Positions 4,772-12,649 of a stretch of DNA of 64,000 bases are shown here, piece after piece (the stretch's first letter is position 1; the number at the start of each line of letters is the position of its first letter). The translations under genes were made by a program, and so were the position numbers. The notes beneath the pieces were generated by a model. That model saw only the letters and a list, made by a program, of their open reading frames with translations. It searched no databases and was not told where the DNA came from. The DNA comes from an uncultured Spirochaetota bacterium (lineage in GTDB: Bacteria > Spirochaetota > Spirochaetia > SZUA-6 > CAVTHK01): contig CAVTHK010000011.1 of NCBI GenBank assembly GCA_963734495.1, forward strand, positions 192,001 to 256,000. The letters run 5' to 3'.

Positions 4772-6964
4772 TTACGCCCGCGGCGGGAACGCGGCGACGA
4801 GCGCGGCGAGGACCGCGTCGGCGCGCTCGGCGTCTTCGACGGTGAACACGTTCAGGTTGTCCATGGCGCGGGTCATGCCGACGTAGACGAGGTTGCGCAC
4901 GAGGCGGTCGCCCTGCGTCTCGTCGAGGTGCTCGCGGCGGGGCAGGTAGGGCAGGTACATCAGCACCACGGGAAAGTCGAGCCCTTTGCTCGAGTGCAGC
5001 GTCGAGAGTCGCACCCGGCCCGCATCGCGAAAGGTGAAGGGCTCCTCGGTGATGTCGACCCCCTCCCAGCCCGCGGCGGCGAGCGCGGCGAGCATCGGCG
5101 CCATCTCCAGGTTGCGGGGCACGAGCACGCAGACGTTGTCGGCCTCGTAGCCGAGGGGGCCGACGAAGAGGAGCAGCTTTTCCACCAGGAGCCTGCGCGC
5201 TTCCTCCGCATCGGCGGCCAGGTACAGCTCGGGCGCCGGTCCTTCGCGAAAGGCGAACGGCCGGCTCTCGCCTTCCCACCCGAGGCCCGCGGAGCGCTCG
5301 CGGAACCGCTCGGCCAGCGCGTGGATCTGCGCGGTGTTGCGGAAGTTGGTCCGCAGCACGCGCGTGACGCCGCGCATCGACAGGCCCGCCCGGCCGAACG
5401 GCGACGCGGCGTTGTAAAGGCTCTGGTCGGAGTCGGCCGCCATCACGATGGACGCGCGCGTAAGCTCGCGCAGGATCGCGAGCGCGGCCGGCGTGAGGTC
5501 CTGCGCTTCGTCGAGAAAGAGGTGGCTGATGTCGCGCAGGCTCCGGTCCCCGGGGTGCGCTCGCAGGTGCTCGAGCAGCTTGAGACGCCCGTAGCCCGTC
5601 GTGTACACGCGGCGCGCCTCCATCTCGGCCGCGATCTCGTCGCGCACGCGCCAGACCTCCTCGCGCTGCCGCCGCGTCAGGCGCCGCCGCATCCCTTCGC
5701 GAAGGATGATCTCCTCCACGTACTCCTGCCGCGTGAGCGCCCACCCGAACAGCAGCGTCTCGATCTCCGCGCGCAGCTCCTCGGGCGTGAGGAACGCGGG
5801 CGCCCGCTCGGGGGTAACGAGCTTGTCGAGCAGCGCGAAGTCGTACACGACCCCGGGCTCGATGGTCTGGAGCTTCTCGAAGAACAGGGCATCCACCGTC
5901 GCAATGACCTCGAGCGGAACGTCGAGTCCCATGATCTCCGCGATGTAGCGATCGTACCTGACAAGAGTACGGGTGAAGGTAATCAGCACCGCGCGCTCGC
6001 CCTGACCGAAGTCGAGGGCGTGCTGCCTGGCGGCGCGCCTGAGCGATTCCAGCAGGACCAGCGATTTGCCCGTGCCGGGCCCCCCGCGGATCAGATAGGT
6101 CCCGTGAAGCCTCACCGCCTGGGCGGCCTCCTCCTGCTCCGGGGTCAGTTGCGCGAGCGAGCGCTCGTAGTCCATGCGGGTCCGCGTGTACACGGAGAGG
6201 CGGCCGAGGTAGCGGAGGTAGCGCTCGAGCTGGTCGAACTCGGCGAGCCGGCCGAGCAGTCGGTTGCGCTCCTGCGCCAGGGCGTTGCGCTCGCGCCGCA
6301 GCTCGTCCAGCCGCTCGTGCCTCCGGTCGGCGACGCCGCGCGCTTCGGCGAGCGCGCGGTCCGAGGCCGCGACCTGCGCCTGCAGCCCCTCGAGCTCGGC
6401 CGAAAGCTCCTCGTACTGCGCGCGCTGGCCGAGCAGGTCCTTGTTGCTCGCGGCGAGGCGCTCGATCTCCGACTGCAGGCCGCGGATTACGGCGCCCTGC
6501 TCGAGCGGCGTGGCGCGCTGCTTCCAGGCGTCGAGGTGCTTCTCGAGCAGGCCGAGGGCGGCGCAGCGGTCGAGGTCCGCCAGCCGGCAGAAGGTCAGGA
6601 ACAGGTGGGTGGCGGCCACGGCCTCCTCGGGGTCCAGCGCCTCGAAGGCGTGGCGCACCTTGTTCGCAAAGACGTGCTGATGACCGAGGCGGCCCAGGCA
6701 GGAGAGCCCCTCGATGAACGCGTCGCCGCGGGAGTCGAGCAGCTCGTTGCGGAACGCCCAGGTGAGCTCGCCGAACTCGGGTCCTGCGCCGTAGCCCTTC
6801 TCGTAGCGCAGCCAGTATTCGACAAAGCTGTGCAGCGCCAGGACGTAGAAGCCCTCGTCCGTGCCGATCATGCGCGTGAGGCGCTCGAGCTTGGCCTCGA
6901 TCGGCTCGCGAGCCGGGGTCTGCTCCGAGGGTGATTGCCGCGGATCGTGGCTCGTTTCGCGCAC
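4772..6964 (-). CDS. SF1 (UvrD-like) helicase with N-terminal helical (possibly HEPN-like) domain and coiled coil
   Basis: Walker A GGPGTGKS, Walker B FLDEAQD, plus NFRN, STLHSSKGLDF and YVGMTRA motifs; about 100 aa coiled coil before the motor. GTG at 6964 with a GGAGG RBS is preferred over the ORF-track start at 7543, which overlaps merR. Confidence 0.85.
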   Translation of the reverse strand: MRETSHDPRQSPSEQTPAREPIEAKLERLTRMIGTDEGFYVLALHSFVEYWLRYEKGYGAGPEFGELTWAFRNELLDSRGDAFIEGLSCLGRLGHQHVFANKVRHAFEALDPEEAVAATHLFLTFCRLADLDRCAALGLLEKHLDAWKQRATPLEQGAVIRGLQSEIERLAASNKDLLGQRAQYEELSAELEGLQAQVAASDRALAEARGVADRRHERLDELRRERNALAQERNRLLGRLAEFDQLERYLRYLGRLSVYTRTRMDYERSLAQLTPEQEEAAQAVRLHGTYLIRGGPGTGKSLVLLESLRRAARQHALDFGQGERAVLITFTRTLVRYDRYIAEIMGLDVPLEVIATVDALFFEKLQTIEPGVVYDFALLDKLVTPERAPAFLTPEELRAEIETLLFGWALTRQEYVEEIILREGMRRRLTRRQREEVWRVRDEIAAEMEARRVYTTGYGRLKLLEHLRAHPGDRSLRDISHLFLDEAQDLTPAALAILRELTRASIVMAADSDQSLYNAASPFGRAGLSMRGVTRVLRTNFRNTAQIHALAERFRERSAGLGWEGESRPFAFREGPAPELYLAADAEEARRLLVEKLLLFVGPLGYEADNVCVLVPRNLEMAPMLAALAAAGWEGVDITEEPFTFRDAGRVRLSTLHSSKGLDFPVVLMYLPYLPRREHLDETQGDRLVRNLVYVGMTRAMDNLNVFTVEDAERADAVLAALVAAFPPRA

Positions 6965-7067
6965 AGGCTGCCTCCGCGCCGGCTCCATTCTATAGCGGTT
7001 AAGGCTGCAGATCGAACGCGGGTCCGGGCGGGGCAGGCGCCGTCGGCTCCGGCTCCCCGAAGACATA

Positions 7068-7096
7068 TTGACAGTGACACTGTCACTGTATATAAT
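7068..7096 (+). promoter_or_regulatory. Consensus sigma70 promoter with a perfect palindromic operator overlapping the -35 box and spacer
   Basis: TTGACA (7068-73), 17 bp, TATAAT (7091-96); inverted repeat ACAGTGACA-C-TGTCACTGT at 7071-7089. Confidence 0.9.
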
Positions 7097-7114
7097 CATC
7101 GTGTGGAAGGGCAG

Positions 7115-7639
7115 ATGACGATCCAGGAGCTCAGCCGGCGGTCCGCCGTTCCGGTCCGGACAGTGCGCTACTACATCGGCGAAGGGCTGCTGCCCAGCGC
7201 CGAAGGGCGCGGCCGCGCCGCGAGCTACACGCAGGATCACCTGCTGCGGCTCGAGGTCATCCGGAAGCTGGTCGAGCTGCGGGTGCCGCTCAGCGACATC
7301 CGCGGCCAGCTCGGGTCGCTCTCGACGCCGGAGCTGCAGAGGATGCTTGCGGAGGAGCGGCGGCGCAGCGCCGGCGAGGAGCAGGCCAGGGCGCGGTCGC
7401 CGCGCGACTACGTGAGCTCGCTGCTCACCCGGGCGCACGCCGAGCGGAGCCCCGATGGGTTGGAGTCGCCGGCGCCGGTCCAGCAAGCGCAGGGCGGCGA
7501 GACCTGGCGCAGGTTCGTCCTGGCGCCGGGCGTCGAGCTGCACGTATCCGCCGCCGCGCAGCGCCGCGAGCGGGATCTGATCGAGGTTCTGCGGGTCGCG
7601 GCGCGCAGCGAACAGGCAACGGGAGGAGGAGACTCATGA
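7115..7639 (+). CDS. MerR-family transcriptional regulator
   Basis: MTIQELSRRSAVPVRTVRYYIGEGLL is a MerR HTH; short C-terminal WRRFVLAPGVELHV segment. Confidence 0.9.
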   Translation: MTIQELSRRSAVPVRTVRYYIGEGLLPSAEGRGRAASYTQDHLLRLEVIRKLVELRVPLSDIRGQLGSLSTPELQRMLAEERRRSAGEEQARARSPRDYVSSLLTRAHAERSPDGLESPAPVQQAQGGETWRRFVLAPGVELHVSAAAQRRERDLIEVLRVAARSEQATGGGDS

Positions 7640-8941
7640 AGGAAAGGGATGCGAACGGTCATGGTGTGCGGCTCTCCGCAGCCTGTGAGAGGCGGCTGGT
7701 GAGACCGCAGGGCAGCCGCAGGCACGTTGTCTTCACGGTTCGCGGCCCGGCGAGCGAGCTTTCGGCGGAAAGGCCGCCGATGTCGCTGGCGCTCGTGCTC
7801 GACCGATCGGGATCGATGGCGGGGGGCAAGCTCGAAACCGCAAAGGCCGCGGCGTTGATGGTCCTCGACCGGCTGGACCAGCGGGACACCGCCTCGGTCG
7901 TCGTGTTCGACAACCAGATCGACGTGCTGCTGTCCGCGGCGGCGGTGGACGCCGCGTACAGAGACGGCGGGCGCAGTCGCTGCTTGCCGAGGTGGCGGCG
8001 CGCGCGAACACGGCCCTTCACGAGGGTGGCTCACCGGCTGCCGAGCGATCGCGCCGGGCGACTCGGAGGCTGCCGGCGGCAGGATGTCCCGCTGCTGGCT
8101 GCTGACCGACGGCCTCGCCAACGTCGGCTTCACGGACACGGAGCAGATCGCGGCGCAGGCGGCCGATATCCGGCGGAATGCCGGGATCTCGACGAGCACC
8201 TTCGGCGTGGGAACGGATTACGACGAGACTCTGCTCGGGCCTATGGCGGTGGCGGGCGGCGGGCAGTTCCACCACCTGAGGACCGAGACGGAGATCGCGG
8301 CCACGTTCTCAGGCGAGCTTGCGGAGCTGTTCCGCGTCGCGGCGCGCGGCGTCAGGCTCGAGATCGAGCTCGACCGCGGGACGAAGGCGGAGGTCATCAG
8401 CCCGTACTGGTCCGTGGCCTCCGACGACGGGCAGCGGCTGCGTATCGACATCGGCGACCTCCTGCCGGACGAGGAGCGTCGCGTCGTCGTTCGGCTCGGC
8501 TTCGACAAGGTGCCCGAAGGGGCGCTCGTGCCCGTTCGCGCGAGGGTCTTCTTCCGGGGCGAAAGCGGCGAGATCGAGGGAGATGCCGCGGCGCTCTCGT
8601 TTGAGGGAGCATCCGACGCGCGCTGCGACGCCGAGGCGCGCGACGCAGCGGTCATGCACTGGGTGGGGCTGCACCACGCGGACCGCGCGCGCATCGAAGC
8701 CCTGCGCCTGTGTCGCGACGGCGATGAGCGCGGCGCGCTGAGTGTGCTCGACCGCGTGATCCGGCGTCTCGCGGAATATGCGACCGGCGACCAGGAGCTG
8801 GTGAGCGCGCTCGAGCGGCTGCGCGACCTGCATCGCGAGATCAAGGAGCGGCGTCTTTCGGCTGCGGTCGCGCATGAAACCTACTACCAGTCCCAGACGC
8901 GCTCCCGCGGCCAGCGCGACCACAGGGGCGGATCCGCGTAA
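7636..8941 (+). CDS. VWA (von Willebrand A) domain protein, YfbK-like; frameshifted at about 7960-8030
   Basis: MIDAS motif VLDRSGSM in one frame, NTALHEG in a second, LLTDGLAN and STFGVG in a third; ATGA overlap with merR. Confidence 0.8.
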
Positions 8942-8942
8942 G

Positions 8943-9929
8943 CTACATCGTGCGGCCGTAGATTGCGGTCGGGCGATACACGCGGACGAGCTGCCAGCCG
9001 GCCTTGACCGCGCTGGTGAGACCGCCTACGCGGTAGTAGTCGATGGGCACGTACCAGCCGTCGGCCAGCGCTGTCCCATCCTCGGCGCGCCACCCGCGCA
9101 GCTCGAAGGCGGCCTTGCCCGCGGGCCTGGCGGACTGGAGAACGAGGCACACGGCGTGGCCGCCGCTGCCGCGATCGGGGGCGAACGAGCCGACATAGGC
9201 GCTCTTCCCCCAGAACTGCAGGAGCCCCGCCGTGACGAGCGCCCAGTCCTCGCAATCGCCGCTTCCCTCCGCCAGGAACTCGTCGGGCCGCAGCGCGGGG
9301 GTGTTCTCGCGGTATGAGTAGCGGTCCCAGAGCGCCTTCTGGAATGCGACGACCTCGCTCCAGTCGAGGTCTCCGTCGAGATTGCCGTCCGCCTCGGCGT
9401 AGAGGCGCTCGAGCGCTTCGCTCGCGATCCCGGTGGCTTCGCGGAACGCGCGCGTCCGTCCCGCAGGGCCCGGCCGCGCCGGCGGCAGTGGTTGCGGGCG
9501 GTAGACAGCCGGCATCGGCTGCGGCGCCGGCGGCAGCGCGTTGGGCGAATGCGACCCGCCGAAGATCGCGAATGTGATCGCGAGGCCGACCGCCACGCCG
9601 ACACAGCCGCCGAATCCGGACCCCGACCGCGCCTGAGGGGCAGCGACGCGAGGCTCGAGGCGGGGCGCGGGCGTCTTTGGCGGGATGCGGAGCGCAGGCG
9701 GCGCCGGCAGGTCGTCGACCCTCAGAAGCTGCATCCGGTCGGCGCGGAAGGTCCGCTCCGCGCCGCGCAGCCGGCACCACCCCCGCACGTAGATCGCGCC
9801 GTAGCGCGCGTGGACCGTCGGAGAGTCGACGGTGCGGACGGTGCGCTTCCCTTCATTATCCACATAGGAGAAGGTGAGCGTGGCCCCTCGGGACGCGGCC
9901 TCCCTGACGAGGGTGACGGCGCAGGACAT
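8943..9929 (-). CDS. WYL domain - transmembrane helix - EF-hand - transglutaminase-like cysteine protease fusion
   Basis: N-terminal LTFSYVDNEGKRTVRTV...YVRGWCRLRGAERTFRADR (WYL); TM GCVGVAVGLAITFAIFGG; DGNLDGDLDWSE (EF-hand loop); GDCEDWA...GHAV...PID (Cys-His-Asp triad). Confidence 0.75.
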   Translation of the reverse strand: MSCAVTLVREAASRGATLTFSYVDNEGKRTVRTVDSPTVHARYGAIYVRGWCRLRGAERTFRADRMQLLRVDDLPAPPALRIPPKTPAPRLEPRVAAPQARSGSGFGGCVGVAVGLAITFAIFGGSHSPNALPPAPQPMPAVYRPQPLPPARPGPAGRTRAFREATGIASEALERLYAEADGNLDGDLDWSEVVAFQKALWDRYSYRENTPALRPDEFLAEGSGDCEDWALVTAGLLQFWGKSAYVGSFAPDRGSGGHAVCLVLQSARPAGKAAFELRGWRAEDGTALADGWYVPIDYYRVGGLTSAVKAGWQLVRVYRPTAIYGRTM

Positions 9930-9942
9930 CGCTCACTGAGGG

Positions 9943-9959
9943 AGCAAGGGCCGTGCCAG
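9943..9959 (-). promoter_or_regulatory. sigma54 (-24/-12) promoter for the WYL-protease gene
   Basis: Minus strand reads CTGGCACGGCCCTTGCT, matching YTGGCACG-N4-TTGCW. It lies immediately downstream of a sigma54 activator gene. Confidence 0.85.
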
Positions 9960-9984
9960 CGGTTGTGAGGCGCCCCGCAGCCCC

Positions 9985-10009
9985 CCTGCGGCCGCGCTCG
10001 GGCCGCAGG
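9985..10009. repeat. Inverted repeat upstream of the sigma54 promoter (candidate activator site or terminator)
   Basis: CCTGCGGCC-N7-GGCCGCAGG; overlapping CCGCAG-N5-CTGCGG at 9975-9991. Confidence 0.45.
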
Positions 10010-10049
10010 CCGTCACTGCCGTAGCCGTCGCCGGAACCGCGGTTGCCTT

Positions 10050-11645
10050 TCAGCCTTTCTCTTCGTCGCCCTCTTCGGCGCGGGGCGCGAGACCGAACCG
10101 CTCCCGCGCCGCCTTGCGGAACGCCGGGCCCTTGAGCCCGAGCAATCGCGCGGCCGCTTCGCCGTTGCCGCCGGCGCGGGCGAGCGCCTGCTCGTAGTAC
10201 TCGCGCTCGATCGCGTGCAGCACCGCGCGCAGCTCCACCCCCTGGGGCGGCAGCGCGAAATCCCGCAAGCCGACCGCGCGCCCGCGCCTGAAGTGCGCGA
10301 GGAGCCTGACCGGAAGCAGGTCGACCGGCACCTCATCGGCCTGCGAGCCGGCGCAGGCCGAGATGACGGCGTTCTGCAGCTCGCGGACATTCCCGGGCCA
10401 GGGATAGGCGACGAGCAGCGAGGCGGCCTCGTCCGAGAGGCGCTTGCTCTCGCCGCACTGCCTGTTCCAGTCCGCGAGGAAACGGCGCATGAGCAGCGCG
10501 ATGTCCTCGGGCCGCTCGCGCAGGGGCGGGACGGTGATGGTGAACTGCGCGAGTCGCTCGTAGAGGTCGCGGCGGAACGAGCCTTCTTCCACCATCTTCT
10601 CGAGGTCGTGGTTCGTCGCCGCGAGGATGCGCACGTCGACCTTGCGCTCGCGATCCTCGCCGACGGGGATCAGCGTCTTCTCCTCGAGCACGCGCAGCAG
10701 CTTGGGCTGGATGCCGGGCGGCAGGTCGCCGACCTCGTCGAGCAGGACGGTGCCGCCCTCGGCCGCGCGGAGCAGGCCGAGCCGCGCGCTGTCGGCGCCC
10801 GTAAAGGCGCCCCGCCCGTGGCCGAAGAGCTCGCTCTCCACGAGCGTGGGCGTGAACGCCGCGCAGTTCAGGGGGAAGAAGGGCGCTTTGGCGCGGTCGC
10901 TCGCCTCGTGGATCATGCGTGCGATCAACCCCTTGCCGGTCCCGGTCTCGCCCTGGATCAGGACGGAGATCGAGTAGCGGGCTGCCCGCTCGGCGCGTTC
11001 GAGCGCGGCGCGGAACGCGGGGCTCTCACCCACGACGCCTTCGGCCGCGGCGCGGGCGATCCAGCGGGGCGAAGCGGCGGGCGAGGTCGCCCCGTCGGGC
11101 TCGGCGATCCTGACCTCGGGCAGCACGCTGCTCGCGAGGTTGACCTCCTTGACCTTGTACACGCCGGCTGCAAAGCGCGGCGGTATCCCCTGCAGCAGCC
11201 TCGCCTTGAGGAGCCCGGAGCGGGCGAGCAGGAACCACGCGGTCTGCATCTGCGGCGTTCCGGGATCGAGCAGCACCCAGAGCTCCGGCGAGCGGTGGGC
11301 GAGGCTTTCGATCACGCGGCCGGCGGCATCGCGGAGGCGCGCGAAGATCTCCTCGTAGTCGATCGGCGACGCGAGGTCGATCTGCACAAAGGAAAACACG
11401 GGGGGCCGCTCGATCTCGACGCCCGCGATCTCCTCGACGTCGCGCGCGCGAACGAGGTAGTCCGGCCCGGTGCAGAAGAGGAACACGCGGTCGAAGCGGC
11501 GGGCGCCTAACAGGCTGAGCACGGGGCCCGGCTCCAGACCTTCCGGCCCGTCCGCGCGGCGGGGATCGCGGTTGCCGACAAAAGAGAGGAGGACGCGTTC
11601 GGGTGGGGCGGGCCCGCTCGGCTCCGTCGCTTTTCCGGGTGCCAT
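10050..11645 (-). CDS. RtcR-like CARF-domain sigma54-dependent transcriptional activator (bEBP)
   Basis: N-terminal VLLSFVGNRDP...GPVLSLL...FDRVFLF...SPIDYEEI...DPGTPQMQTAW (RtcR/CARF-like); AAA+ GETGTGKG, ESELFGH, GAFTGA, LLDEVG and WPGNVREL; C-terminal HTH AAARLLGL. Confidence 0.88.
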   Translation of the reverse strand: MAPGKATEPSGPAPPERVLLSFVGNRDPRRADGPEGLEPGPVLSLLGARRFDRVFLFCTGPDYLVRARDVEEIAGVEIERPPVFSFVQIDLASPIDYEEIFARLRDAAGRVIESLAHRSPELWVLLDPGTPQMQTAWFLLARSGLLKARLLQGIPPRFAAGVYKVKEVNLASSVLPEVRIAEPDGATSPAASPRWIARAAAEGVVGESPAFRAALERAERAARYSISVLIQGETGTGKGLIARMIHEASDRAKAPFFPLNCAAFTPTLVESELFGHGRGAFTGADSARLGLLRAAEGGTVLLDEVGDLPPGIQPKLLRVLEEKTLIPVGEDRERKVDVRILAATNHDLEKMVEEGSFRRDLYERLAQFTITVPPLRERPEDIALLMRRFLADWNRQCGESKRLSDEAASLLVAYPWPGNVRELQNAVISACAGSQADEVPVDLLPVRLLAHFRRGRAVGLRDFALPPQGVELRAVLHAIEREYYEQALARAGGNGEAAARLLGLKGPAFRKAARERFGLAPRAEEGDEEKG

Positions 11646-11728
11646 CGCACCCAAGCCTAATCGCTGCGGCGGGGGCCCGCAAGCGTCAGGCCGTGCGCCG
11701 GGCCCCGCTGGCCGCTTCAACGACCGCC

Positions 11729-12649
11729 TCACCGCCGCGACCGCGGGCGCAGGCGCACGACCTCCTCGACGGCCGCCGGATCGTCGGGGAACAGGCCCGC
11801 GCGGGCCAGGCGCGGCACGAGATCCGCCCAGCGGCCATCGGCCGCGAAGAGCCTGCGGAACAGCCGAAGCGCCTCGGGCCTGCGCCCGCCGGTGTACATC
11901 GCGAAAGCCGCCCAGAACTGCAGCTCGCTCACTTCGGGCGCTAGACCGGCGGCCGCTTCGTACGCCGCGAGCGCCTCCGCCGGCCGCCCCTCGGCGACGA
12001 AGCTGTCGCCCCTGTCTTCGAGCAGGTAGGCGCGCCGGAGGCGCGTCAGGCGGCGGAGCTCCTCGAGCGGCTCGGGGCTGTCGTCCACGCGGAGGTCGAA
12101 GGTCCGGTCCATCCACGGCTTGCCCGAAGGCTTGCCGCTCACCACCAGGATCGCCGCCGACTGCCTGCCGCGGATGTCGCCGCCGGCCTTCTCGCCTGCC
12201 TCGAGGGCCCGCAGCAGCCGCTCGGCGAGGTCGCCGTCGGCGCTCTCGAACGCATCCTTCATCGCGGGCCACACCGAGGGATTCGCCATCATGTTGGCCT
12301 GCACGGAGAACTGATCGCCGGTGAGGTGGCCGGCGTCCGGGATGCAGCCGGGGCCCGTCCAGGCCGCGACTCCTCCCGCGGCGTCCACCATCGCCACCTG
12401 CCGGCCCTGGGGATGGGCATCGGTCGCAAGCAGCGAGTCGAGCGCGTCGCGCGCCGCGAGGCCCGAGCGCATCTTCTCGAGCCCCAGCGGACCGTAGTCG
12501 GGCAGCACGAGCGACTGCGTGGCGACGACGCCGACGCCCGACTCGGCCCAGGGCACCACCGCGCCCACGGCGAAGTAGTGCGACTGCACCGCCGCTCCCA
12601 GCTCGCCGGTCTGCCGGTCGCGCGCCACGATCGAGTAGGTGTGGACCAA
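11729..12649 (-). CDS. DUF1028 Ntn-hydrolase-like protein with C-terminal TPR
   Basis: TYSIVARD...GAAVQS, RQVAMVD, GGDIRGRQSAA and DLRVDD motifs. Confidence 0.85.
   Translation of the reverse strand: MVHTYSIVARDRQTGELGAAVQSHYFAVGAVVPWAESGVGVVATQSLVLPDYGPLGLEKMRSGLAARDALDSLLATDAHPQGRQVAMVDAAGGVAAWTGPGCIPDAGHLTGDQFSVQANMMANPSVWPAMKDAFESADGDLAERLLRALEAGEKAGGDIRGRQSAAILVVSGKPSGKPWMDRTFDLRVDDSPEPLEELRRLTRLRRAYLLEDRGDSFVAEGRPAEALAAYEAAAGLAPEVSELQFWAAFAMYTGGRRPEALRLFRRLFAADGRWADLVPRLARAGLFPDDPAAVEEVVRLRPRSRR

Follow-up and report, generated by a model that had tools for sequence, protein, structure and literature searches.

Sigma-54 activators with a CARF sensor domain are a predicted route from nucleic-acid alarm signals to gene expression. 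RtcR-like regulators with a CARF-NtrC-helix-turn-helix (HTH) order have been linked to restriction-modification systems, and CARF and WYL genes, which encode hallmark sensor domains of defence systems, generally co-occur (Makarova et al. 2014, PMC4012209). RtcR homologues also head the CoCoNuT defence superoperons, and RNA fragments with cyclic-phosphate ends have been proposed to induce these operons (Bell et al. 2024, PMC11090510). Since it was predicted in 2014 and again in 2024, the principle of a CARF activator placed ahead of defence genes is not new. Here we describe a two-gene module of this kind in a 64-kb window (the whole stretch of DNA analysed) from an uncultured Spirochaetota bacterium, whose genome (G000) comprises 5.38 Mb in 18 contigs, with a G+C content of 67-69% and a completeness of 83%. 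Two minus-strand genes stand in tandem: a CARF-type sigma-54 activator (10050-11645) and a gene (8943-9929) for a protein that joins a WYL domain, a transmembrane (TM) helix, an EF-hand loop and a transglutaminase-like cysteine peptidase domain, which we refer to as the WYL-peptidase. We put at roughly 60% the probability that the module is a ligand-gated sigma-54 switch with a WYL-TM-peptidase as its cargo, most likely serving as a phage- or damage-triggered conflict response. The original prediction, made from the sequence alone, knew of no described system like this one. For the regulator, this is contradicted by the two papers above; the WYL-TM-peptidase cargo, on the other hand, does seem undescribed. 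Our literature search found no described WYL-TM-peptidase, with the supplementary lists of loci in both papers being places that may hold spirochaete examples. What seems to be new is a family, at least 85 clusters strong, with the WYL-TM-EF-hand-peptidase architecture, along with its dedicated sigma-54 control, AAC-N4-GTT twin site and leaderless layout.

All the sequence features that the original prediction had named are present where it had placed them. The elements that would connect the two genes are the following:

9943-9958, minus strand: sigma-54 -24/-12 promoter TGGCACGGCCCTTGCT, a perfect match to the consensus, with a predicted transcription start near 9932.
10033-10046, minus strand: candidate activator binding site GCAACCGCGGTTCC (nnAAC-N4-GTTnn), from motif conservation upstream of the family promoters.
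10012-10025, minus strand: degenerate second copy of the candidate site, GCTACGGCAGTGAC, 21 nt beyond GCAACCGCGGTTCC.

The promoter TGGCACGGCCCTTGCT sits 90 nt past the stop codon of the activator and 13 nt before the start of the WYL-peptidase gene. It is the sole match to TGGCAC-N5-TTGCW in the window; 100 shuffles of the window gave a mean of 0.05 matches, with one match in 5 of the 100. Genome-wide, it belongs to the seven TGGCAC-N5-TTGC[AT] sites within the 18 looser matches listed, and to the six sites that reach the top weighted score (maximum 20.5; a score of at least 18 was taken to denote a good promoter). The genome encodes rpoN and about ten sigma-54 activators. A weaker sigma-54-like element, CGGCCTGACGCTTGCG, is found at 11683-11698 on the minus strand, approximately 35 nt 5' of the activator ATG, with a score of 16.5 of 20.5 as computed by hand with the same weights.

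Comparison across genomes supports the wiring. As the original prediction had suggested looking for, the activator, the -24/-12 element and the WYL-peptidase gene form a pairing that is conserved across spirochaete families, even where the genes are reordered or unlinked. A search of one genome per species (185,579 species) yielded 29 family loci; promoters were counted in 26 of them plus the window (27 in total), with L057-L059, matched over 25-39 residues only, left out. An element scoring at least 18 lies directly upstream of the WYL-peptidase gene in 20 of these 27 loci; as background, the 530,432 positions of these loci contain 55 sites with such a score, a figure in which the true sites are counted. 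A CARF activator is encoded within the same locus in 14 of the 29. Gene order varies – tandem as in the window, divergent in most loci, or a cargo-then-activator operon (L027/L040) – and in every order the promoter faces the WYL-peptidase gene. In a sample from the order of the source genome, in which the cargo was searched for in 61 genomes and the activator in 92, all seven genomes with a strong cargo match also hold a strong activator match. The pairing can be seen at a distance in genome G021, where the activator is on another contig than the two WYL-peptidase genes and all three genes have a sigma-54-type element and a twin site (scores 19.0, 19.5 and 17.0). Both cargo and activator are absent from a genome of the same genus (G001, 99% complete) that shares the flanking genes at about 77% DNA identity. 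The module is accessory and patchily distributed.

The activator stop codon precedes the candidate binding site GCAACCGCGGTTCC by 4 nt, and the promoter is 88 nt downstream of this site. The same palindrome, nnAAC-N4-GTTnn, precedes 15 of the 21 promoters of the WYL-peptidase family at a distance of 46 to 226 nt, and in nine of these promoter loci it is paired, with the copies spaced 20-22 bp apart. Its density per kb is 4.74 upstream of the promoters, 0.30 over the loci and 0.032 in the source genome. We refer to the palindrome as the candidate upstream activating sequence of the activator.

The protein that would act on these sites is encoded as follows:

10050-11645, minus strand: gene for a CARF-AAA+-HTH sigma-54 activator (bacterial enhancer-binding protein, bEBP), assigned to the RtcR_PspF2 family (translation of 531 residues, Pfam, PADLOC).
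11106-11600, minus strand: predicted CARF sensor domain, residues ~16-180 (AlphaFold model, Foldseek, VIA-align, PADLOC).
10536-11033, minus strand: AAA+ sigma-54 interaction domain with GAFTGA, residues 205-370 (Pfam PF00158, 219.6 bits).
10134-10214, minus strand: C-terminal Fis-type HTH, residues 478-504 (HTH_8; the stretch is conserved in a 30-sequence alignment).

The original prediction had called this protein an RtcR-like bEBP, and as a description of its architecture the term is apt: like RtcR, the activator begins with a CARF-like domain, continues with a GAFTGA-bearing AAA+ domain of the NtrC type and ends in an HTH. In Pfam it matches Sigma54_activat (219.6 bits), AAA_lid_14 (72 bits) and RtcR itself (28.5 bits on residues 85-170, cut-off 23.1), with HTH_8 marginally below its cut-off (21.8 versus 22 bits). 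The translation contains an intact GAFTGA and, as its Walker A motif, GETGTGKG. As a statement of orthology, however, the term fails. The NCBIfam RtcR equivalog NF038308 gives 311.5 bits, as compared to a cut-off of 650, and covers residues 86-505 only. The PADLOC profile RtcR_PspF2--CARF_AAA_HTH (PDLC01995) reaches 428.1 bits over residues 17-506, spanning profile positions 2-468 of 481, and its sister profiles score lower (RtcR_PspF1 237.7 bits, RtcR 213.9 bits); the PADLOC library has no curated cut-off, and the RtcR_PspF2 assignment is the best of the sister profiles. Because the RtcR equivalog is missed and the RtcR_PspF2 profile scores twice as high as the RtcR profile, we set the activator apart from RtcR: judged by these profiles, it belongs to another, already catalogued family of CARF-AAA+-HTH proteins. 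Since it is not an RtcR orthologue, attributing RtcR's ligand, RNA ends carrying a 2',3'-cyclic phosphate, to it would be an assumption.

The fold search with the N-terminus that the original prediction had proposed as a check returned CARF. We modelled residues 1-195 from an alignment of 30 relatives (AlphaFold; mean predicted local distance difference test score, pLDDT, 89.2). The best Foldseek match of the model was Enterococcus italicus Csm6 with an analogue of cyclic hexa-adenylate (cA6; E 4.8e-7), and 47 chains had E <= 0.001, the search placing the model among CRISPR-associated CARF proteins. VIA-align placed Streptococcus thermophilus Csm6' with cA6 first (Z 16.7; 149 residues, root mean square deviation (rmsd) 2.6), followed by Csm6 proteins at Z 15.8 and 14.9; all of the 50 matches listed are CARF proteins, and no RtcR structure is among these 50. 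When the CARF part by itself was compared by sequence with solved structures, no meaningful match emerged, so that there the fold search alone identified CARF; in PADLOC the N-terminus matched CARF1 (E 8.8e-13) and Csx1/Csm6 (E 9.4e-11). As modelled, the activator N-terminus is a CARF fold, and the closest solved folds are binders of cyclic oligoadenylates. In its loops after strands 1 and 4, V23, D27, P28, G129, T130 and M133 do not vary among 14 sequences, while G24 and P131 scarcely do. The loop after strand 4, GTPQMQT, contains no basic residue. The RtcR family likewise has none at this point, which was taken to suggest a distinct ligand (Makarova et al. 2014, PMC4012209), and structural work on the CARF domain of RtcR was described as still to be done (Hughes et al., PMC7790460). 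Type III CRISPR was considered as a source of the ligand and rejected: the Cas10 profiles TIGR02578 and TIGR02577 have only weak HD-type matches or none in the source genome (83% complete).

The position of rtcB bears on whether the adjacency of the two genes is incidental, i.e. whether the activator is a true RtcR that targets a distant rtcB while the -24/-12 element serves another activator. In agreement with the original prediction, neither rtcA nor rtcB is present in the window. The only rtcB of the source genome is located on another contig, C9 (G000:C9:323877-325191, minus strand; locus L091, 5438-7378), beside an archease gene, and rtcA was not found in this genome, which is 83% complete. 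Upstream of rtcB there is no -24/-12 site scoring at least 17 and no AAC-N4-GTT motif, and nowhere in the genome did we find the activator linked to an rtcB or rtcA gene with a sigma-54 promoter. The original prediction had named a distant rtcB as the kind of target that would speak against its own reading; having neither a sigma-54 promoter nor the binding motif, rtcB does not appear to be the target. The Pfam RtcR match above the cut-off, the presence of about ten activators of the class in the genome and the occurrence of sigma-54-promoted WYL-peptidase genes in genomes without a CARF-activator match would all be compatible with incidental adjacency. Set against the NCBIfam score of 311.5 versus 650, the bare promoter region of an rtcB that stands beside archease, the failure to find rtcA and the conservation of pairing, promoter and motif across families, such an arrangement strikes us as highly improbable. 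We also note that rtcB reads in two overlapping frames, corresponding to profile positions 1-228 and 222-426, the first of which continues into the archease domain; this could reflect a frameshift, an assembly error or a fusion.

The cargo protein has the following features:

8943-9929, minus strand: gene for a WYL / TM / EF-hand / transglutaminase-like cysteine peptidase protein (translation of 328 residues, P0002).
9717-9914, minus strand: WYL domain, residues 6-71, predicted to be cytoplasmic (Pfam WYL, 47.8 bits).
9561-9617, minus strand: single TM helix, residues ~105-123, predicted N-in/C-out (hydropathy; helix 109-123 in the model).
9354-9389, minus strand: predicted EF-hand calcium-binding loop DGNLDGDLDWSE, residues 181-192 (12-residue EF pattern).
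8946-9437, minus strand: LapG-like cysteine peptidase domain, predicted to be periplasmic, with C226, H258 and D297 (fold alignment, triad).

An AlphaFold model of the 328-residue protein based on 29 aligned relatives (pLDDT 84.7) consists of two confident domains and a low-confidence linker that holds the single helix 109-123. The first domain is a WYL barrel (residues 1-75; Pfam cut-off 21.8) that aligns to BrxR, PafBC, CapW and DriD with Z-scores of 10-12, matches PafC by sequence (E 2e-4) and has conserved arginines in the stretch YxxxxCxLRxxxRxFRxDR. WYL domains are known in DNA-binding regulators and in nucleic-acid enzymes. The Pfam scan found no DNA-binding domain beside the WYL domain in this protein.

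The second domain (residues ~165-328) aligns to Legionella pneumophila LapG (4fgq; Z 9.5, 131 residues, rmsd 3.8), to CPR-C4 protease (Z 8.9) and to the pseudomurein endoisopeptidase PeiP (Z 8.4), with LapG also matched in Foldseek (E 5.4e-4). C226 and H258 are invariant and D297 is nearly so in 29 relatives, and in an alignment of the C-terminal part of 19 sequences none of the three varies. According to the model, the C-terminal domain is a papain-like transglutaminase fold with a Cys-His-Asp triad. The EF loop is flanked in the model by helices 171-178 and 190-203, and its D181 and E192 are invariant in 29 sequences. The peptidase is predicted to be periplasmic and of the calcium type.

An exhaustive HMMER search with the C-terminal profile gave 175 cluster representatives at E <= 1e-30, in which the domain is always C-terminal. 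The domain scan of the family covers 114 of 150 rows; the 36 left out are 32 mostly short proteins (134-347 residues, most of them under 260) and four identifiers already seen. At E <= 0.001, WYL is present in 85 of the 114 relatives, with no other N-terminal sensor domain, while Transglut_core is matched in 40 and Peptidase_C93 in two; Peptidase_C93 (PF06035) does not match P0002 in the Pfam scan. EF-hand_5 matches nine of the 114. The 19-residue hydrophobic window of P0002 has a mean hydropathy of 2.05, with three lysines and arginines before it and none after it. The 88 of the 114 family members in which a TM window lies between the two domains average 3.34 in the 15 residues before it and 1.44 after, with more before in 67, equal numbers in 11 and fewer in 10. 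From this charge bias the WYL domain is predicted to be inside and the peptidase outside.

The WYL-peptidase family is almost confined to Spirochaetota: by title, 26 of the 29 loci are from spirochaetes, two from Bacteroidales metagenome-assembled genomes and one from an 'uncultured bacterium'. A phage origin of the cargo found no backing, as tblastn of P0002 gave no match in 50,697 phage records, and a scan of IMG/VR with P0002 turned up no orthologue, the six matches being weak and partial (29-95 residues at 27-52% identity). Small phage transglutaminase-like proteins have protein-atlas scores of 0.90-0.91 to P0002, which we regard as a lead only.

A further shared trait is the spacing between promoter and start codon. 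If transcription is taken to begin 12 nt beyond the C of the GC element, 16 of 21 loci have their first in-frame start codon 0-4 nt from that point; in the window the distance is 3 nt. Of the five exceptions, two look as if the reading frame were broken between the N-terminal and the C-terminal match, and in these an ATG stands at the usual spacing. Leaders of 20-40 nt with AGGAGG-like sites follow other strong sigma-54 promoters of the source genome. An ATG 0-4 nt from the start implies a leaderless mRNA, and hence, with the start predicted from spacing, the cassette appears to write leaderless mRNAs. Judging by titles and the beginnings of abstracts, none of the papers listed in a full-text search appears to deal with leaderless sigma-54 transcripts. 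A conserved leaderless start behind a sigma-54 promoter makes for an easily testable prediction.

This layout invites a more far-reaching proposal, which we offer as speculative and on balance unlikely. The twin site, the sigma-54 promoter and the start codon at the transcription start would make up a portable spirochaete cassette, in which leaderless mRNAs are produced under a CARF sensor that responds to damaged or alarm nucleotides. Such messages would be translatable when damage to rRNA or tRNA, or phage takeover, cripples Shine-Dalgarno initiation. The WYL-peptidase, as the main cargo, would represent a new class of inside-out effector: its WYL domain would sense single-stranded nucleic acid and switch on the periplasmic, calcium-dependent peptidase, and the resulting cut in the envelope would abort the infection.

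The activator clade is not restricted to WYL-peptidase genes. Viewed from the activator side, 80 metagenome loci contain 102 promoter-like sites, of which 48 have the motif within 260 nt; several of the promoter-motif pairs are divergent and share one twin site. The first open reading frames (ORFs) behind these 48 promoters encode the WYL-peptidase in eight loci (two of them near-identical), the activator itself in seven, small PEGA-domain proteins in five, a signal-peptide protein of about 200 residues in four, a PrsW-type intramembrane protease in two (near-identical) and an AAA_15/AbiEii-like ATPase in two. One further group has two members, the single one scanned being ARPP-1, and the rest are singletons. 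Given this variety, the activator clade has exchangeable cargo, of which the WYL-peptidase is the commonest and not the sole partner.

More distant CARF activators from the same order as the source genome (26-42% identity in the CARF part) also stand before top-scoring sigma-54 promoters (L088, 10229-14083; L090, 9834-15249; L089, 5899-9303; L085, 7914-12370). Their cargo is an N6-methylase-STAND fusion of 1255-1278 residues with a second STAND ATPase, or a defence-type reverse transcriptase, or, at L085, a leaderless ARPP-1 gene with the same spacing as in the WYL-peptidase loci, followed by a Schlafen-like helicase. The activators of L043 (G034) and L085 (G080) share a CARF variant, FVGFHDP and SGTPQMHA, and have the WYL-peptidase and ARPP-1, respectively, as cargo; the shared variant with differing cargo suggests that cargo is swapped within a subclade.

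Two other promoters of the source genome deserve description. The top-scoring TGGCACGCCCGTTGCT (G000:C13:391560-391575, minus strand; locus L095, ~5465-7694), with a site of the same type, GCAACCGGAGTTGC, 140 nt upstream, precedes a gene whose 318-residue product is a lipoprotein that has an LPGC lipobox and matches no Pfam family. We regard this gene as a possible addition to the regulon. Just upstream of it lies a gene for a P-loop protein of the Clp1 polynucleotide-kinase type (PF16575, 105 bits). The second promoter, TGGCACGCCCCATGCT (G000:C16:113349-113364, plus strand; locus L096, 5423-6139), has the twin sites CGAACCACGGTTGC and GCAACCGCGGTTGT, 20 bp apart, and precedes a gene for a 238-residue outer-membrane beta-barrel protein (OMP_b-brl_2); GCAACCGCGGTTGT has 12 of 14 bases in common with the window site GCAACCGCGGTTCC.

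The signal-peptide protein of about 200 residues is beta-rich, with a conserved C-terminal W-K and no Pfam match, and is encoded at L107 (3274-3867), L112 (5322-5927), L116 (1334-1924), L121 (2082-2708), L029 (9836-10522) and L026 (3681-4301). It lies between promoter and activator in six loci, several of which also contain the WYL-peptidase gene. We considered it as a third conserved component of the module and discarded it, as tblastn found no match in the source genome. Compared with the sigma-54-driven outer-membrane barrel of that genome by hhalign, it had a probability of 0.2%, i.e. no detectable relation.

The same circuit could have a different purpose, namely envelope remodelling: LapG-like release or processing of a surface protein or a cell-wall link, for instance to detach or reshape the cell once nucleic-acid damage is sensed. 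Such a role, with no connection to phage at all, is a serious rival, to which the nature of the nearest folds lends weight, LapG being a periplasmic protease that releases an adhesin and PeiP and PeiW being wall-cutting enzymes. The PEGA proteins, the PrsW intramembrane protease and the beta-rich signal-peptide protein among the other cargos point the same way, as do the lipoprotein and the outer-membrane beta-barrel behind the two sigma-54 promoters of the source genome with near-identical sites, and sigma-54 has been argued to control mainly the cell exterior (PMC3162934). However, most of what is known of CARF and WYL comes from circuits of defence and DNA damage (PMC4012209), the cargos of related activators include a reverse transcriptase, a methylase-STAND gene and an AbiEii-like ATPase, the distribution of the module is patchy and accessory, and neither a LapA-like substrate nor a LapD-like partner is encoded beside the gene. 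With these points weighed together, we consider a purpose in envelope remodelling possible, if doubtful.

We return to the conflict response, which we favour because relatives of the activator precede defence-type genes, the module is accessory, and CARF and WYL are hallmark defence sensors. In this scheme, the CARF domain would bind a small signal derived from nucleic acid, whereupon the activator would assemble on the AAC-N4-GTT sites and spend ATP to open the promoter at 9943-9958. Transcription would begin about 3 nt before the ATG, yielding a leaderless mRNA, and the product would reside in the inner membrane with the WYL domain in the cytoplasm and the calcium-type Cys-His-Asp peptidase in the periplasm. 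The response would thus have two steps, with a first signal making the protein and a second, cytoplasmic ligand acting on its WYL domain. By analogy with PafBC, DriD and CapW, this second ligand would be single-stranded nucleic acid; the structure entries of CapW and DriD, the nearest solved WYL relatives, are titled as complexes with single-stranded DNA. Its binding would change the assembly of the protein and with it the activity of the peptidase outside, so that a target in the envelope is cut. Comparison of sequences, models and loci provides the domain identities, promoter, site motif, leaderless layout and pairing. To these we add by inference both ligands, the inside-out coupling, the substrate and the role in defence, and the induction by RNA damage or phage and the control of the protease by WYL, both proposed in the original prediction, would likewise belong here.

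The WYL-TM protein might also be a regulator that feeds back on the CARF activator, by binding the activator's nucleic-acid ligand, or one related to it, at the membrane or by binding the activator itself, and not chiefly an effector. There is a precedent in RtcA and RtcB, which attach to RtcR's CARF domain and are needed for activation (PMC9650030). In some loci, moreover, the activator shares a sigma-54 operon with the WYL-peptidase or stands behind a sigma-54 promoter of its own, and feedback loops therefore exist; autoregulation of the activator, clear from the sequence in other loci, is only hinted at in the window. On the other hand, invariance of the triad and of the EF loop would be unexpected if the WYL part alone mattered, the WYL domain has no DNA-binding domain with it, and the switch also works with cargos that lack WYL. 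A purely regulatory function is accordingly quite improbable in our view.

Several observations weigh against the conflict response or against its generality. Judged by its neighbours, the window is no obvious defence island. With no Cas10 found in the genome, a source of cyclic oligoadenylate is not evident. The peptidase domain is present in only eight of the 80 metagenome activator loci, and with envelope proteins (PEGA, PrsW and the signal-peptide protein) among the other cargos, an envelope stress response fits as well as defence does. Seven of the 27 loci have no good promoter, the exact motif is absent from six of the 21 promoters, and the start on which the leaderless layout depends is only a predicted one. 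Transglut_core (PF01841) scores 18.8 bits on P0002, below its cut-off of 23. Four of the five genomes with unlinked cargo have no CARF-activator match, the completeness of these genomes not being known, and since L051, which has no activator match, keeps a strong promoter, another activator can serve. Finally, three of the loci (L027, L040 and L115) represent a single contig and two (L039 and L049) are almost the same, and because of such related or duplicated assemblies the counts overstate the independence of the loci.

The neighbours of the module in the window are a DUF1028-TPR gene, an aminotransferase gene, a MerR regulator gene and a VWA gene, and scans of 8700-11900 for sigma-70-type promoters and terminators returned nothing relevant. 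On the minus strand, 4772-7543 encodes a UvrD-like superfamily 1 helicase whose ~460 N-terminal residues have no Pfam match; in PADLOC it weakly resembles GajB and a NERD+UvrD model (61 bits). Because the long ORF overlaps the MerR gene on the opposite strand, the gene probably begins at about 6900. On the plus strand, 6935-8941 contains the gene for the MerR-family regulator (6935-7639), followed by a VWA-domain ORF (7636-8604). The latter overlaps a second long ORF in another frame (8084-8941) with a coding-like G+C pattern, and the overlapping ORFs (7636-8941) may be a frameshifted VWA gene that converges on the WYL-peptidase gene.

The spirochaete clade offers an unusually clean test case for CARF-controlled transcription, with one activator, one site motif, one promoter and one cargo gene, in a pairing that survives unlinking. 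A membrane-tethered WYL domain joined to an extracytoplasmic protease would, if true, be a novel means of relaying a nucleic-acid signal from the cytoplasm across a membrane. Of the parts of this proposed pathway, the protease end most resembles LapG and the BTLCP family, with which the cargo shares the catalytic fold (Z 9.5) and the Cys-His-Asp triad, as well as, by prediction, the periplasmic location and the calcium site. The logic inferred here is that of LapD-LapG, where a cytoplasmic signal controls a periplasmic protease. However, here sensor and protease are one polypeptide, the calcium site is predicted to be a canonical EF loop, Peptidase_C93 is not matched by P0002, and no LapD- or LapA-like gene is nearby. 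At the sensor end, the WYL beta-barrel is that of BrxR, CapW, PafBC and DriD, with 25-28% identity to DriD in fold alignments. While those regulators carry a winged HTH and act on DNA, the WYL protein described here has no DNA-binding domain and is predicted to be tethered to the membrane together with an extracytoplasmic enzyme.

The activator has its closest counterparts in RtcR and in the RtcR_PspF2-type activators. RtcR, which activates rtcBA in Escherichia coli and Salmonella, has the same CARF-like N-terminus, NtrC-type AAA+ domain with GAFTGA, Fis-type HTH and sigma-54 target, and the spirochaete activator resembles it also in having no basic residue in the loop after strand 4 (PMC4012209). 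Unlike RtcR, it stays below the equivalog cut-off, no rtcA was found in its genome and rtcB lies elsewhere without a sigma-54 promoter; moreover, its CARF domain directly matches CRISPR-type CARF profiles and folds. With the RtcR_PspF2-type activators it shares the domain order, a full-length profile match and the lack of linkage to rtcBA, and these too stand beside variable, often conflict-related cargo behind a sigma-54 promoter. Compared with the RtcR_PspF2 examples in print, the cargo here is a single WYL-TM-peptidase gene and not genes of the restriction or McrBC type, the site motif and the leaderless start go unmentioned in the available portions of those reports, and the clade is specific to spirochaetes.

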